From a virus (Duplodnaviria; Caudoviricetes): a DNA stretch of 53,902 nt. Below, piece after piece: positions 811 to 53,479 of the stretch (position 1 is the first letter of the stretch; every line of letters begins with the position of its first letter). Under the pieces are notes generated by a model, which did no database searches, was not told the origin of the DNA, and was given only the letters and a program-made list of their open reading frames with translations. Both the position numbers and the translations under genes were made by a program. The stretch lies in the IMG/VR virus record IMGVR_UViG_3300042335_000111, positions 1 through 53,902 of that record; one strand, written 5' to 3'.

Positions 811-836
811 GCATCTTTTTTTATCGTTAACGATAA

Positions 837-1389
837 TTACACCCGCAATTCCCACCTGACTTTTGCTGCTGTTGATTGTGACTTGCTTCTTTGTCTATTA
901 TTCCAATCCATACCCTGCTTAGATGTCGTTGAGGCCAGCCATCCGCTTGCTTTGTATATTGTTCCACAATGAACATCTGTGTCTTGATATGAAACAAATA
1001 ATTGAATATGCGGCATTCTTTTTTTAATTTCTTTTCGCATAACTGAAAGCATTCTGCTTGCTGTGTTTTTTGGAGCATCTGGAGATATCGCTAATCTTCT
1101 TAACTCCAAAGCAACGCTTCCTTCTTTCATTCTATTTGCGGCGATTGGACTCGACCAAATAGCAACTGCATATATAAAATTATCATATGCAGCAACAAAA
1201 CAAATGTAATCTTTATTTCTAATAACATTTGATGGGTCTATCACTGGGAATCTTGAATGCCACAACAAATTTAATTTACAGGCTAAAAAACGAAGTGCAT
1301 TTTAAAATCTCAAATTGCAATGGAGAATTTGGTTTAATTGGATCACCATTTCTAAATAATGGCATTAAATCTCGAATTTCTTCACTCAT
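837..1389 (-). pseudogene. Mom-like (GNAT-fold) DNA adenine-modification protein, split by a +1 frameshift near the T6 run at 1285-1290
   Basis: C-part ALELRRLAISPDAPKNTASRML...SYQDTDVHCGTIYKASGW is Mom-like. The frame from ATG 1389 (MSEEIRDLMPLF..SPLQFEILKC) stops at 1276 but joins the C-part if one base is removed. Confidence 0.65.
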
Positions 1390-1403
1390 ATCGGTTCCGA
1401 TAA

Positions 1404-1781
1404 TTAGTCTACACCTACTTCGTTGATCTCACCATTTGACCAAGCATACATCCTGTCGTTGAGTAGTTCGTAAATTTCTTCTGCACTCTCTGCGTCTTCA
1501 CATTGGAATACGGCGCGGCGTTCACCAATACCTTCTCCGCTGATGATGAAATCACATTTGTAAACTACATCTCCTCCAGTTCCATTGGCGAGCATGATAG
1601 CTGTGTTATCTTTCCTCATTGCCATAGAGCAGATGCCATTTTTATTTTCGTAGGTAGCCATGAAAGAAGTTTCAAGTGCAGTGGCGAGAGACATATTTGT
1701 AACTAAAACTGTCTTCCTTACGCTGGCTATCAACTCTTCAAGTTTCGGGTTTAATTTATTCATTGGGTTTGTGTTATCCAT
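1404..1781 (-). CDS. Hypothetical protein
   Basis: ORF directly after a consensus promoter; ATG at 1781. Confidence 0.7.
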   Translation of the reverse strand: MDNTNPMNKLNPKLEELIASVRKTVLVTNMSLATALETSFMATYENKNGICSMAMRKDNTAIMLANGTGGDVVYKCDFIISGEGIGERRAVFQCEDAESAEEIYELLNDRMYAWSNGEINEVGVD

Positions 1782-1789
1782 AAGCAATC

Positions 1790-1835
1790 ATAGTATCAAA
1801 AAAGTGTTGACTTGTCAATAGTCTTGGTTTATTTT
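1790..1835. promoter_or_regulatory. Interlocked divergent sigma70 promoters
   Basis: - strand TTGACA(1818-1813)-N17-TACTAT; + strand TTGACT(1807-1812)-N17-TATTTT. Confidence 0.7.
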
Positions 1836-50773: not shown

Positions 50774-50964
50774 GGGAGCATTGAATCAATATCTTGTATC
50801 TGTGTCAATACTTTTGTTTCAGAAAAGTATTGGTTCATTATCTTGAGTCCTTCGTTGTGGTAGTTCTCTGCGATACAATATCTTTCCTTGTCTTGAGCTT
50901 CCCAGATTGCGTTTGCCGCCTCCAGATACTTCAACGCTTTTCCGTATGCTTGGTCGATTGTCAT
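50770..50964 (-). CDS. Hypothetical protein
   Basis: Coupled ORF. Confidence 0.6.
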   Translation of the reverse strand: MTIDQAYGKALKYLEAANAIWEAQDKERYCIAENYHNEGLKIMNQYFSETKVLTQIQDIDSMLP

Positions 50965-52196
50965 TAGTATACCTCCTCAAGTTTTGAGATGTCACCGCGC
51001 ATGATGATTTCTGTCATGTAGTTCCTCTGACCTCTGCGGTTCTTCTTGATTGTCAGCCTACTCTTCTCCTTGATGTGTTCGATATACACTACTTGGTCAG
51101 AGTGCATTCCGATTGCCCGTGATTCGCGTAGTCTTCCTTCGTCGTTTAGTTGAGAAGCTGTGAGCATAATCGAGTTATTCTTCAGTGCTGCGAGTTTTAA
51201 TCTCCTTGCGATCTCCGAAATCTGGCTTTCCCTACCTTCTTCACCATCAGATGAGATAATTTGGAGGTAATCTACGACAATTACATCTGCCCGTTTTTCT
51301 CCAACGTATCGGTTGATTTGGGCCTCAATCTCGTCAATTTCGGCTACTCCATCCACGATTTCGAGGGGTAACTGGTGTAATTTCAACAATGCGGCACTGA
51401 TTTTGGCGAGTTCTCCTTGGTTCGCATTTTTGTAATCCTCTGGTTCACGCACGGGATAGCCTGCAATGTTACAAGCCATGCGAGTTAGGATGTCCTTCGC
51501 TTTCATTTCGAGGCTGAAGAAGAGAACCGACTTACCTTCTTCAAGATTTGCGAGTGCTGCCTGCACAAGGTAGATAGATTTTCCTCCACCTGTCTCTGAT
51601 GCCACTGTCATCATCTCCCCTTTGTGCATTCCACCCTTGAGCGCACGATCAACTTTCAGTAATCCAGTAGGAAAGAATTCCTTTACTGCTTTACCTTCCA
51701 TCTCATCGATGATTTCGATGATGAGGTCTTTGACTGGTTTGACTTTCGTCGTCCGATCTTCGGCCAAGTTCATTATCGTTTCCGATAATTCCTTTAAATC
51801 GGCCTTACCTGCGCGGAGATTTACTTCTTCCTTCTCCATGAGGGTAATAACATCGCGGTATGCCTTCGTGCGGTGAAGATGCTTCCGGTAGTCATCTGCC
51901 ATGTCTTGGCAAACCTTACCCGAAGTTACCTTCATCGTGCATAATGTGTCATGGACAGATTCTTCACCACCCGCTGCTTCCAGTTGTCCAGTTGCTTCCA
52001 GTTCTGCGATGGCAGAAAACGGGCAACAAACCCCTGTCCGCTGGTGAACCCCTTGGAGCGCATTAAAAACGATCCTGTGAGCTGGTATGGCGAAATAATC
52101 GCTATCCCATGTTTGTTGGGAAAGGATGTTTCTGTCGATTGCGATGAGCGACAATGCTGCCGCTTCACTCTTTCGTGCTATTGGGACTTTTTTCAT
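50964..52196 (-). CDS. dnaB: DnaB-like replicative helicase
   Basis: ETGGGKS, FSLEM, VVDYLQII, SQLN, LRESRAI, KNRRG. Confidence 0.92.
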   Translation of the reverse strand: MKKVPIARKSEAAALSLIAIDRNILSQQTWDSDYFAIPAHRIVFNALQGVHQRTGVCCPFSAIAELEATGQLEAAGGEESVHDTLCTMKVTSGKVCQDMADDYRKHLHRTKAYRDVITLMEKEEVNLRAGKADLKELSETIMNLAEDRTTKVKPVKDLIIEIIDEMEGKAVKEFFPTGLLKVDRALKGGMHKGEMMTVASETGGGKSIYLVQAALANLEEGKSVLFFSLEMKAKDILTRMACNIAGYPVREPEDYKNANQGELAKISAALLKLHQLPLEIVDGVAEIDEIEAQINRYVGEKRADVIVVDYLQIISSDGEEGRESQISEIARRLKLAALKNNSIMLTASQLNDEGRLRESRAIGMHSDQVVYIEHIKEKSRLTIKKNRRGQRNYMTEIIMRGDISKLEEVY

Positions 52197-53434
52197 TTAT
52201 TCAATTCCTCTATTAATGTTAGAAAAGCTCTGGTTGCTGTTGCTGGAACGACTCCATTTCCGAGCAATCGGAGTTCATCTGTGCGTGATTCAGTTTTAAC
52301 CATCCACTCACAAATCTCGGCCAGTTCTTGATGACTGATGCCGGACAACTCGGACAAGTCCATCCCACCGGCAGGCCCATGAGCGTCTCGACCCAGCGGG
52401 GGTTGAGTTTCGCTGACGCAGATTTCCCGATGATCGACAAGTCCTTTACCAGACTCTTGTGTCCCGTAGTTTTGTGAATGGCAGTTGATCCATCGTGCGT
52501 CTGCGGCGTTGCCCATTGCTTCATATCTCTCCCCAAGCATTTCTGATTGCTGGTTAGCTCCGTCCTCGCTCCCTCCACATGATCGCTTGCTTGCGGCGTT
52601 GCCCACGACTCTTGTCGTTGATTCGTCCCCTTGATCTCCTCCGCGAATACTTGATCCACAGTCAAACATTGCGTCTTCGCTTTGTCCCCATGAACTAACG
52701 CTCTCACTACCTGCCTGTGCGGAGTCTCCCCCCGATTGTGAGTCCCGTGAGCAAGAGTTTGCCAGTTTTGCTGGGACTGATCCGACAACCCTTGGTGGTT
52801 CCCATGCGTATTGCTGTTGACCGGGTCTGCTGGGCCATATTCCAATTCTTGCTTCACAATTGAATCCAAACTTGGATTCCTGTGTCTGCGTTCGCTCGCA
52901 CAATCCTCCGCTTGATTGACTCTTATTGTGGGCCATGATGAACACTCTTTTCCTTTGGTGGACTGCGCCAACTTCACTCGCACTGAATATCCCGAACGAA
53001 CTTTTGTAACCCAGTTCTTCCAGATCACTGATGACTGTGGAGAGTCCCAACGAAATGTGTCCCTCGACATTTTCAAAGAAGCACATTCTTGGTTGAAGAA
53101 GTCGAATTCCATCTGCGATCCAAGGCCAGAGATGTCTTGGGTCTTCTTTTCCTGCTCGCTTTCCTGCGGAACTAAATGGTTGGCAAGGGTATCCCGCAAT
53201 GAGGATGTCCACCAATCCGTGAAACGATTCGTATGGGAAGGTTTTAAGATCGTTCCATAGAGGTGCGACATCCATGAGTCCTTTTTCCATTTTACTGAGG
53301 AGATTGGCTTGAGCATACCCCTCAAGCTCACAATATGCGATGGTTCGCATTCGCTCGCCAAAGATGTTTTTGAGTCCAAGTCCAATGCCGCCATACCCGG
53401 CGCAGAATTCAAGAGTTGTGATGGTAGTATCCAC
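52193..53434 (-). CDS. DNA cytosine-C5 methyltransferase, catalytic (alpha) frame
   Basis: FCAGYGG (I), GYPCQPFS (IV), FENV (VI), HQRKRVF (VIII), LLGNGVVP (X); motif IX absent from this frame. Confidence 0.9.
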   Translation of the reverse strand: MDTTITTLEFCAGYGGIGLGLKNIFGERMRTIAYCELEGYAQANLLSKMEKGLMDVAPLWNDLKTFPYESFHGLVDILIAGYPCQPFSSAGKRAGKEDPRHLWPWIADGIRLLQPRMCFFENVEGHISLGLSTVISDLEELGYKSSFGIFSASEVGAVHQRKRVFIMAHNKSQSSGGLCERTQTQESKFGFNCEARIGIWPSRPGQQQYAWEPPRVVGSVPAKLANSCSRDSQSGGDSAQAGSESVSSWGQSEDAMFDCGSSIRGGDQGDESTTRVVGNAASKRSCGGSEDGANQQSEMLGERYEAMGNAADARWINCHSQNYGTQESGKGLVDHREICVSETQPPLGRDAHGPAGGMDLSELSGISHQELAEICEWMVKTESRTDELRLLGNGVVPATATRAFLTLIEELNK

Positions 53435-53436
53435 AT
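52219..53436 (-). CDS. Overlapping (beta) polypeptide of the methyltransferase, carrying TRD-like repeats and motif IX
   Basis: 405-aa open frame with four W-x-T modules and LNPRWVETLMGLPVGWT. Confidence 0.7.
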   Translation of the reverse strand: MWILPSQLLNSAPGMAALDLDSKTSLASECEPSHIVSLRGMLKPISSVKWKKDSWMSHLYGTILKPSHTNRFTDWWTSSLRDTLANHLVPQESEQEKKTQDISGLGSQMEFDFFNQECASLKMSRDTFRWDSPQSSVIWKNWVTKVRSGYSVRVKLAQSTKGKECSSWPTIRVNQAEDCASERRHRNPSLDSIVKQELEYGPADPVNSNTHGNHQGLSDQSQQNWQTLAHGTHNRGETPHRQVVRALVHGDKAKTQCLTVDQVFAEEIKGTNQRQESWATPQASDHVEGARTELTSNQKCLGRDMKQWATPQTHDGSTAIHKTTGHKSLVKDLSIIGKSASAKLNPRWVETLMGLPVGWTCPSCPASVIKNWPRFVSGWLKLNHAQMNSDCSEMESFQQQQPELF

Positions 53437-53479
53437 TATTTTTTTCTATTTAGGTTTTAGTTTTTATCGGTAACGATAA

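Follow-up and report, generated by a model that had tools for sequence, protein, structure and literature searches.

An evenly spaced, genome-wide array of a 16-bp palindrome in a family of freshwater phages, and a candidate protein that may read it

Background

Dispersed operator arrays, in which one DNA-binding protein is served by sites at many places of a replicon, are known from plasmids, chromosomes and phages. Noc sites are scattered over the chromosome, the phiC31 repressor binds conserved inverted repeats and N15 has dispersed SopB centromere sites; both of these phages are temperate and their sites are fewer than those described below, and to our knowledge neither even spacing nor in-gene copies have been reported for their arrays. 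Among plasmids, RK2 (IncP) carries about 12 OB sites. These palindromic operators are read by KorB, which PMC11790492 describes as a ParB-family protein acting as a CTP-dependent sliding clamp. The stoperators of cluster A mycobacteriophages such as L5 are, according to PMC9283540, more than 20 asymmetric 13-mers that lie in promoters and short intergenic spaces and work in an orientation-dependent manner; the same source presents their repressor, from a temperate phage, as a monomer with two DNA-binding domains (a helix-turn-helix and a second one) that is thought to stop elongating RNA polymerase. A third point of comparison is LmbU of actinomycete antibiotic clusters, for which PMC6510168 gives a homodimer with N-terminal, central helix-turn-helix and C-terminal domains and the palindromic target 5'-CGCCGGCG-3'. 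Here we analyse a 16-bp palindrome, TTATCG-KWWM-CGATAA, that recurs along the whole of IMG/VR virus record IMGVR_UViG_3300042335_000111, together with a protein encoded at 38123-39109 that is probably its reader.

The complete record, 53,902 bp, was analysed over its whole length and is referred to as the window. Its source is an uncultured freshwater phage of an abundant freshwater family. Parts of the stretch are present in runs from lake water, sediment and wastewater, and a 127-bp repeat is shared by both record ends. Searches of a phage collection by megablast and tblastn with 26880-35836, 9333-10784, the candidate reader and TerL as queries gave no match to a cultured relative.

Results

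Form and number of the sites

The 14-bp core of the palindrome, TATCG-KWWM-CGATA (TATCGKWWMCGATA), has 21 exact matches in the 53.9 kb of the window as opposed to none in 100 dinucleotide-preserving shuffles, and the full 16-mer (TTATCGNNNNCGATAA), allowing at most one mismatch, matches 22 times against a shuffle mean of 0.07. An earlier reading of this DNA from its letters alone (hereafter the sequence-only reading) had counted 20 exact core matches, one too few; the observation as such is confirmed, and the interpretation given with it is supported in part. The combined set thus recovered comprises 23 sites, namely the 21 core matches, the copy at 43362 (right arm CGATCA) and that at 49251 (spacer TTAT, right arm CGATAT). 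Each half-site reads TTATCG-K-W, and the 4-bp spacer, which had been called symmetric, is so in a degenerate manner (K-W-W-M) and varies within that set at orthologous sites.

Conservation and selection on the DNA word

A single conserved-protein query retrieved 210 relatives from IMG/VR, and motif counts were made on the best 80 of the 210 loci (77-92% nucleotide identity where alignable). The motif is present in all 80, with 2-10 copies each and 390 copies in 1.127 Mb, i.e. one per 2.9 kb. The exact 16-mer of the copy at 821 occurs in at least 114 IMG/VR stretches, and of the 112 new loci among the matches listed, 97 can be aligned to the window. When whole records, related or distant, were considered, 14 of 17 hold 9-29 copies and no control matches, the other three being unrelated large contigs with one copy each. 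The motif is therefore conserved and enriched in related phages, one of the points on which the sequence-only reading had said it could fail.

At orthologous sites the arms are almost invariant, while flanks and spacer vary. The three best-covered in-gene copies belong to TerL, a tail-region gene and DnaB; identity at third codon positions is 0.997, 0.994 and 0.981 within their arms, against 0.61, 0.50 and 0.61 in the flanks. For the four of 12 in-gene copies that could be aligned with at least five relatives the corresponding values are 0.92 and 0.54 (Mann-Whitney p = 3e-8); the other eight, in genes not aligning with five or more relatives, fall outside this codon test. The synonymous constraint that had been predicted at in-gene copies is thus present, and points to selection on the DNA word itself. 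The spacer, in turn, flips at one and the same orthologous site (e.g. TTTA, GAAA, TTAA, TAAA), and distant relatives mostly have a perfect palindrome with the spacer TTAA (17 of 25 sites in genome G002). The K-W-W-M rule, the spacer flips and the perfect palindrome of distant relatives are marks of a two-fold symmetric protein on duplex DNA, and the symmetry of the site fits the dimeric binder that had been expected.

As RNA, on the other hand, the palindrome would make a weak stem of only -3.1 to -4.6 kcal/mol. Positions 1 and 16 often change on one side alone, in no case with a matching change on the other, and no U-tract follows the motif. None of the 31 terminator-like sites listed over 1-20000 and 34000-53902 is a motif copy (the scan left aside 20001-33999, with five copies), and the two real terminators of the window (9080-9109 and ~35899-35935) do not resemble it. 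The weak stem and the lack of compensatory change argue that selection acts on double-stranded DNA rather than on RNA.

Placement on stop codons, in genes and along the genome

Seven copies directly adjoin a stop codon, and two carry one inside the spacer, so that both of the proteins concerned end in K-L-S followed by the stop (Table 1). All nine stop-codon contacts that had been listed, including the two K-L-S termini, agree with the table of open reading frames (ORFs) and the flanks; so does the observation that the copy at 24353 runs from a stop to a start, its last A being the A of the ATG at 24368. In the long plus-strand operon there are five junctions at which the motif ends 0-6 nt before the next ATG. 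Across seven genomes of the clade, junction or stop-codon sites make up 29-63% of the copies compared with 8-12% expected, a 3-7-fold enrichment.

Twelve copies lie within coding sequences, where they are read as LSETI (four), LSEPI (one), IVND or IVTD (four), FIGNDK or FIGTDN (two) and NIDNDN (one). About ten had been noted before, and of the readings then given LSETI, LSEPI, IVND, IVTD and FIGNDK recur in the present ORF set, while ASETI was not seen. The gene names attached to them fared unevenly: TerL stands (2749-4599, minus strand, phrog_2), 46709-47152 is a dCMP deaminase by PHROGs, no single-stranded DNA-binding protein (SSB) was identified among the ORFs scanned, and some of the names are unconfirmed or wrong. 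In-gene copies use two of the three frames only; the third would end in TAA. Codon use in these two open frames explains why the sense-strand spacer is mostly xAAx or A-rich, and together with the flips at orthologous sites it rules out the spacer orientation bias as a strand signal.

The array spans the genome, as had been claimed, and is more regular than chance. Its largest gap, estimated at ~5.4 kb, measures 5391 bp (24353 to 29744), and the coefficient of variation of the gaps is 0.50 in the window versus 0.94 under random placement (P = 1.5e-4). Regular spacing persists when sites are redrawn within their class (junction or coding sequence), with P <= 0.008 in six of seven genomes and 0.084 in the seventh; these genomes are related, so that the spacing and junction tests are not independent of one another. 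Individual sites move. The copy in the helicase gene of five relatives lies ~480 bp from that of the window, two of the five being without the window's copy at the aligned position, and in several relatives a copy lies in the gene at 7768-9051, the window having its own in the following gap instead. Around the three copies of the 7.5-kb gene the sequence cannot be aligned with relatives. We infer that the even placement reflects selection for coverage, the word being placed where it is cheapest and in coding sequence where there is no gap.

A protein family that accompanies the motif

Of 27 core families searched as profiles, that of the protein at 38123-39109 is alone in having a match in each of the four distant genomes or loci (L216, G001, G019 and G021). 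The profiles of the XRE-type protein and of the products of 1404-1787 and 41965-42708 found nothing in G001, G019 and G021 at E <= 0.01, the last being found in L216. Of the four binders put forward by the sequence-only reading, the comparative data therefore favour that at 38123-39109, called LmbU-like, while the XRE-type, 41965-42708 and NrdR-type proteins are less widely present.

Genome G001 (48.8 kb) has no nucleotide similarity to the window and nonetheless contains nine exact copies of the motif; its homologue of the candidate reader is 26% identical. By BLASTP the two share six ORFs, namely four for virion or packaging proteins (TerL, 4636-5013, a portal-like protein and 24368-25333), the small HNH protein and 38123-39109 (a seventh row, formed by two short antisense ORFs of 44 and 48 residues, was set aside). 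The metagenome contig L216 (GC content 55.5%), found through its 32%-identical homologue, holds 14 TATCG-N4-CGATA sites in 21 kb, and the 9.7-kb contig L270, with a 57%-identical homologue, four copies.

A sister group of 67-69-kb phages (L217-L260; G018-G022), which shares TerL, portal, HNH, the giant protein and the candidate reader at 20-50% identity, has diverged homologues of the latter and a single TATCG-N4-CGATA in 582 kb of loci. These phages have another palindrome, TTGTT-N-AACAA, with 82 copies in the same 582 kb versus one for the control, and 7-9 copies per 67-69-kb genome versus 0-1 for the control in all five genomes. Its extended form is (T/c)A-TTGTT-N-AACAA-(T/g)A, and in most sublineages one copy lies ~250 nt into the gene of the candidate reader itself. 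Two alignment positions near the helix-turn-helix separate the proteins by motif type (T199 versus H/A; LP(F/Y)T versus ISPT). Further subfamilies did not extend the comparison: the alignment query A3 and P0293 were without a relative in IMG/VR, P0133 matched no stretch there, and A3 had none in metagenome contigs either.

The search for homologues of the candidate reader found 684; the family has 163 clusters at 50% identity and is without a Pfam model. Its gene in the window follows those at 36406-37275 (exonuclease) and 37268-38083, and the same order is kept in L216. The core domain (residues 108-275) was modelled with a pLDDT (predicted local distance difference test) of 95.3, the full-length protein with 67.7 and no useful PDB match. 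Among the first 12 PDB matches listed for the core (ranks 1-13 except rank 11), nine are DNA-binding domains of Noc, ParB or SopB (7nfu, 7ol9, 7bnr and 3mkz are among the matches); they are weak, the best having a probability of 0.99 but an E of 0.15, with E from 0.15 to 3.8 and TM from 0.31 to 0.45. Weak rows for viral models named DUF3102 or ParB and look-alikes in the atlas point the same way, while profile and single-sequence searches against PDB sequences returned chance-level rows only. The ParB-type CTP-binding domain (ParBc) gave no Pfam hit for the 328-residue protein at E <= 5, nor is a ParB-type hit among the 25 families shown for 84 members at E <= 1. The NCBIfam model LmbU NF038070 matches residues 149-272 on profile positions 12-127 of 171 (E 6.5e-6, 26.2 bits versus a cut-off of 125) and is matched by five of ten family members at E <= 1. 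The label LmbU-like thus describes a real but remote likeness that stays below the NCBI cut-off.

A symmetric homodimer model of two copies of residues 108-328 scored 0.79 against 0.00 for the best control; 20 of 30 proteins with a paired structure attain this score, and one of 23 with a single-chain structure. At least 64% of the contacts are common to the runs, the pLDDT of the partner is at least 76, and the model supports the view that the protein pairs as a homodimer.

Promoters and transcripts

Perfect TTGACA boxes occur in several intergenic gaps, the divergent XRE gene pair (1404-2149) has facing TTGACA promoters, and no Shine-Dalgarno signal was found at start codons. The box at 9131 comes after a strong terminator (9080-9109). 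Evidence from transcripts comes from contigs of four RNA-labelled runs, which cannot show true transcript ends and in which uncovered parts are uninformative. In two runs the depth is 30-fold (X21) and 6-fold (X22) higher from ~9170/9304 to 11801, which marks a unit under high expression whose products probably include the major capsid protein; one contig end, at 9170, falls close to where the box at 9131 would place a transcript start, which is no more than a hint. At the copy at 11777 the contigs read through.

Sites and genes of the window

Table 1. Palindrome sites and genes of the window referred to in the text.
Feature	Coordinates	Strand	Remarks
Copy TTATCGTTAACGATAA	821..836		intergenic, adjoins stop of Mom-like 837-1268(-)
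Copy ATATCGGTTCCGATAA	1388..1403		adjoins stop of 1404-1787(-)
Copy	2846..2861		inside TerL 2749-4599(-), frame FIGNDK; arms kept in 79 relatives
Copy	5005..5020		stop of 4636-5013 in spacer; 6 nt upstream of ATG 5027
Copy	9182..9197		281-nt gap before 9333-10784; ~45 nt past TTGACA box 9131, past terminator 9080-9109
Copy	11777..11792		fills junction, stop at 11776 to ATG at 11799
Copy CTATCGTTAACGATAA	14794..14809		4 nt upstream of tail-fibre ATG 14814
Copy	17199..17214		stop of 14814-17207 inside spacer; 4 nt upstream of ATG 17219
Copy CTATCGTTAACGATAT	20568..20583		inside 20378-22399, frame TIVNDI; arms kept in 43 relatives
Copy	22793..22808		inside 22390-23667, frame FIGTDN
Copy	24353..24368		from stop at 24352 (ORF 24194-24352) through A of ATG 24368
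Copy	29744..29759		inside 2486-residue gene 28376-35836, frame LSETIT
Copy	31547..31562		inside 2486-residue gene, frame LSETIK
Copy TTATCGGAACCGATAG	35369..35384		inside 2486-residue gene, frame LSEPID
Copy	35938..35953		intergenic, between terminator-like hairpin and TTGACA box 35976 heading the exonuclease/candidate-reader operon
Copy GTATCGTAACCGATAA	37650..37665		inside 37268-38083, frame SIVTDN
Copy	41443..41458		inside helicase gene 40080-41732(-); relatives' copy ~480 bp away in the same gene
Near-copy TTATCGGAAACGATCA, 1 mismatch	43362..43377		inside 43074-43457
Copy	46428..46443		adjoins stop of 46444-46680(-)
Copy	48209..48224		adjoins stop of 48225-48479(-); lies in codons 2-6 of glycosyltransferase 47095-48228(-)
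Variant TTATCGTTATCGATAT	49251..49266		inside GIY-YIG gene 48842-49531(-)
Copy	51773..51788		inside DnaB 50964-52196(-), frame LSETIM; arms kept in 27 relatives
Copy	53464..53479		adjoins stop of replication-initiator gene (53480-53887 part)
Mom-like gene	837-1268	-	Pfam
XRE-type protein	1844-2149		kept at 55-82% identity in 6/6 clade genomes
Small HNH protein	2086-2406		conserved; common to G001, G019, G021
TerL	2749-4599	-	phrog_2
Collagen/S74-type tail-fibre genes (two)	14814-17207 (one of the two)		ATG at 14814
2486-residue gene with GNAT domain	28376-35836		7.5 kb
Exonuclease	36406-37275		first in operon before 37268-38083 and 38123-39109
Candidate reader P0002, 328 residues	38123-39109	+	N-terminal domain, acidic linker, central helix-turn-helix core (~108-275), C-terminal domain
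Superfamily-2 helicase (ResIII and Helicase_C domains)	40080-41732	-	
dCMP deaminase	46709-47152		PHROGs
Glycosyltransferase	47095-48228	-	
NrdR-type zinc-ribbon protein	48225-48479	-	absent from 3/6 clade genomes
GIY-YIG gene	48842-49531	-	
RusA-like Holliday-junction resolvase	49868-50275		PHROGs
DnaB	50964-52196	-	
Replication initiator	1-709 and 53480-53902 (53480-53887 part)	-	wraps record ends; PHROGs DnaD-like helicase loader / initiator O-like

Pfam and/or PHROGs scans covered 38 different ORFs of the window, several small ORFs lying outside the scan, and among these 38 no integrase, partition ATPase (ParA-type) or KorA-type co-repressor was found. The replication-initiator gene is split in two because of where the circular assembly was cut. 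A C5 methyltransferase is also encoded; it and the Mom-like and GIY-YIG genes have a homologue in none of the six motif-keeping clade genomes, and the glycosyltransferase in three of the six.

Three observations concern single loci. The glycosyltransferase is 82-84% identical to that of the 67-69-kb phages, whose TerL is only 29-30% identical, and these sequences suggest a recent gene exchange between the distantly related groups. The 2486-residue gene shows no nucleotide alignment with relatives and ~30-36% protein identity over 600-950 residues to proteins of 2946 and 3352 residues of the 67-69-kb phages; the giant gene thus diverges fast. Finally, the 36-nt divergent gap between TerL and the plus-strand operon (4600-4635) holds a different palindrome, GAAAATATATTTTC, which overlaps a TTGACA-type promoter match at 4593 and may be a separate operator.

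When the candidate reader was searched for among bacteria and archaea, contigs of this phage family turned up in two metagenome bins, which carry the labels Woesearchaeota and Chthoniobacter (L269 and L270). These names probably reflect an error of binning, since the L269 contig, at 51.8 kb, is about a whole phage genome of the family, and no host is inferred from them.

Discussion

The interpretation we favour is that the 16-bp palindrome is a docking site for a protein on double-stranded DNA, which we regard as very probable, and that the protein at 38123-39109 is its reader, which is likely although by no means secure; for the two propositions jointly the balance is about even. A two-fold symmetric dimer of the phage protein would dock on TTATCG-KWWM-CGATAA, of which each half-site is TTATCG-K-W, and some 20 sites per genome would be kept so that no stretch is far from one. 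Where an intergenic gap is present the site would fill it, and where there is none, as in the 7.5-kb gene, it would form part of the coding sequence, using one of the two stop-free frames; sites on stops and a few bases before starts would be explained by this filling of gaps between genes. The reader, predicted to have a ParB/Noc/SopB-like helix-turn-helix core, remotely LmbU-like, without a ParB-type CTPase domain, would be made from a sigma-70-type promoter together with the exonuclease and, occupying sites over the entire chromosome, would have a global effect, not one confined to single promoters.

An even and symmetric array that extends into genes suits a function dependent on coverage of the entire chromosome. 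Two such roles rank highest, and we make no choice between them: a genome-wide damping or insulation of transcription, as with KorB at OB sites or the L5 repressor at stoperators, or a bridging, condensing or marking of the phage chromosome. Given a reader, one or the other of these is the probable role. More widely, the protein could belong to an unnamed and widespread phage family of helix-turn-helix proteins with a ParB-like core and no CTPase, each subfamily with its own evenly kept palindrome, forming a chromosome-wide organising, shielding or silencing layer; this generalisation is tentative and rather doubtful.

Several results weigh against the interpretation as a whole or in part. In G001 spacing is not even (P = 0.47) and junction sites are only two of 12. 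The presumed recognition helix of its protein is TVSARHRTGK, compared with TVSGYARACR in the window, yet the motif is the same, and in the tree the G001 protein groups, on a long branch, with the TTGTT-type proteins. This position would be consistent with TATCG being the older state, without proving it. Because the genomes compared are all distant relatives and also share TerL, portal, HNH and 24368-25333, the co-occurrence of motif and protein could reflect shared descent. No fold match has an E as low as 0.001, and the cut-off of the LmbU family is missed by a wide margin. Of the five TTGACA promoters weighed only two are within 60 bp of a site (that at 9182, downstream of box 9131, and that at 35938, upstream of box 35976), so that the array is not a classical promoter-operator set. 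That the RNA-library contigs cross the copy at 11777, with DNA carry-over possible in the library, indicates that this site is no absolute block and the array no set of absolute terminators. Lastly, the reader might be a host protein.

This last point belongs to the strongest alternative, in which the docking sites are real but serve another reader, such as a host DNA-binding protein, the XRE-type protein or another small phage protein. We consider it unlikely, if worth serious attention. The XRE-type protein is kept in all six clade genomes, small helix-turn-helix proteins diverge past the reach of BLAST and hidden Markov models, and the differing recognition helix of G001 would be no difficulty; the TTGACA promoters and the lack of a Shine-Dalgarno signal leave room for a factor of the host. 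Profiles of the XRE-type protein, 1404-1787 and 41965-42708, however, found nothing in G001, G019 and G021, and in the 67-69-kb group the type of motif switches along with the 38123-39109 subfamily. A host factor, moreover, leaves unexplained why the exact 16-mer in IMG/VR is nearly confined to this phage family (97 of the 112 new loci among the matches listed).

It is improbable that the sites serve immunity in lysogeny or a carrier state, with a repressor at many sites silencing lytic genes in the manner of stoperators. The resemblance lies in the number of sites, 23 per 54 kb, and in their use of short operon junctions, which recall the more than 20 13-mer sites that PMC9283540 reports for L5, and the window has a divergent XRE pair (1404-2149) with facing promoters. 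Integrase and partition ATPase are nonetheless missing among the 38 scanned ORFs, the sites are symmetric whereas stoperators, as PMC9283540 describes them, work in one orientation, about half of the sites lie deep in genes under strong constraint, and the candidate reader is encoded in the recombination operon, not next to the XRE switch.

Lower still we place the idea that the palindromes, with their two CG steps, are targets of a cutting, nicking or modifying enzyme, for instance the HNH protein at 2086-2406, a methylase or a Mom-like protein. Although the window encodes Mom-like, C5 methyltransferase, GIY-YIG nuclease and glycosyltransferase genes, the absence of the first three from all six motif-keeping clade genomes, and of the glycosyltransferase from half of them, rules out a modification-linked reading. 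The HNH protein is common to G001, G019 and G021, but that of the window is nearer to its G019 counterpart (50%), which goes with the other motif, than to that of G001 (35%), which goes with the same one, and a small HNH protein encoded next to a terminase gene usually helps in packaging. Nor would a cutting or modifying enzyme explain why a phage should build up evenly spaced copies of that enzyme's long target.

An RNA hairpin, whether it served in processing, transcript stability, termination or the translational coupling of neighbouring genes, is very improbable. Many copies do occupy exactly the space from a stop to the following start, ending 0-6 nt short of the ATG, a palindrome yields the same stem on either transcribed strand, and the highly covered RNA contigs of the capsid region have a copy close to their 5' end; the stem is weak, however, with neither compensatory pairs nor a U-tract, about half of the copies are inside genes, and the real terminators look different. 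Equally remote is a direct part in replication or recombination (priming, helicase loading or recombination hot spots), suggested by the co-transcription of the reader with an exonuclease, in an operon order kept in L216, and by a spacing of 2-3 kb, which is within the range of Okazaki fragment sizes, since known priming and Chi-type signals are short and asymmetric, nothing found ties the sites to DNA ends, and the separate O-like/DnaD-like initiator across the record ends rules out an origin or iteron reading of the candidate reader.

If docking by a phage-encoded dimer is true, a large and abundant group of freshwater phages spends coding freedom on about 20 evenly spread copies of one word. 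The cost is visible in the frozen synonymous sites of TerL, DnaB and the tail gene, and implies a function that needs coverage of the whole chromosome, a property that phage regulators are not known to have and whose nearest published parallel, KorB of RK2, is on a plasmid. On the wider and more doubtful generalisation given above, the viral chromosome would be studded with protein dimers every 2-3 kb, a layer undescribed for phages and of which this family would be a clear case. For the reader family (163 clusters, no Pfam model) the sites would be a first functional handle, with a remote tie to LmbU regulators and the ParB DNA-binding fold, and the sister group with its different palindrome would be a natural specificity swap. 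Among the papers listed by our literature searches, judged by title and abstract, we found no description of such a genome-wide palindrome array in phages, and by title no LmbU paper on phage proteins.

Comparison with known systems

Palindromic sites for one phage protein at many places of the genome are a feature that the array has in common with phiC31 and N15. With ParB-parS, Noc-NBS and SopB-sopC it shares palindromes of 14-16 bp and, by a weak match, the fold of the DNA-binding core; unlike them, the phage system has no CTPase domain or ParA that we could find, and its sites are not clustered as a centromere. LmbU offers the same three-part layout and the dimer predicted for the candidate reader, along with a weak NF038070 match. 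At 26 bits against a cut-off of 125, though, the protein is not a member by the NCBI rule, and LmbU acts at a handful of promoters within a single gene cluster instead of over a whole genome, in actinomycetes rather than in phages of a freshwater host.

Stoperators and the parS, NBS and matS sites were the analogues named by the sequence-only reading. The stoperators, in the account of PMC9283540, resemble the present array in that more than 20 copies of one short site extend over a phage genome of ~50 kb, many of them in operon junctions; they differ in that the site described here is palindromic with a spacer that flips, the protein proposed to read it comes from a different family and is predicted to pair, and lysogeny genes were not seen. 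A closer published analogue exists in KorB with its palindromic OB sites on RK2. As far as PMC11790492 describes that system, both cases have one palindromic site of 13-16 bp scattered over a replicon of ~50-60 kb and read by a dimer with a ParB-type helix-turn-helix (in the phage a candidate reader for which both features are predicted, the fold by weak matches), and KorB acts globally and at a distance, not promoter by promoter, as we propose for the phage array. By Pfam the phage protein is without the N-terminal CTPase domain of ParB, and no KorA- or ParA-like partner was seen in the ORFs scanned; the phage sites are about twice as dense, evenly spaced and to about one half in coding sequence, and the replicon is a phage. 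Dispersed operator arrays as such are known, and what is new here is an even, in-gene phage array with a specific candidate reader.

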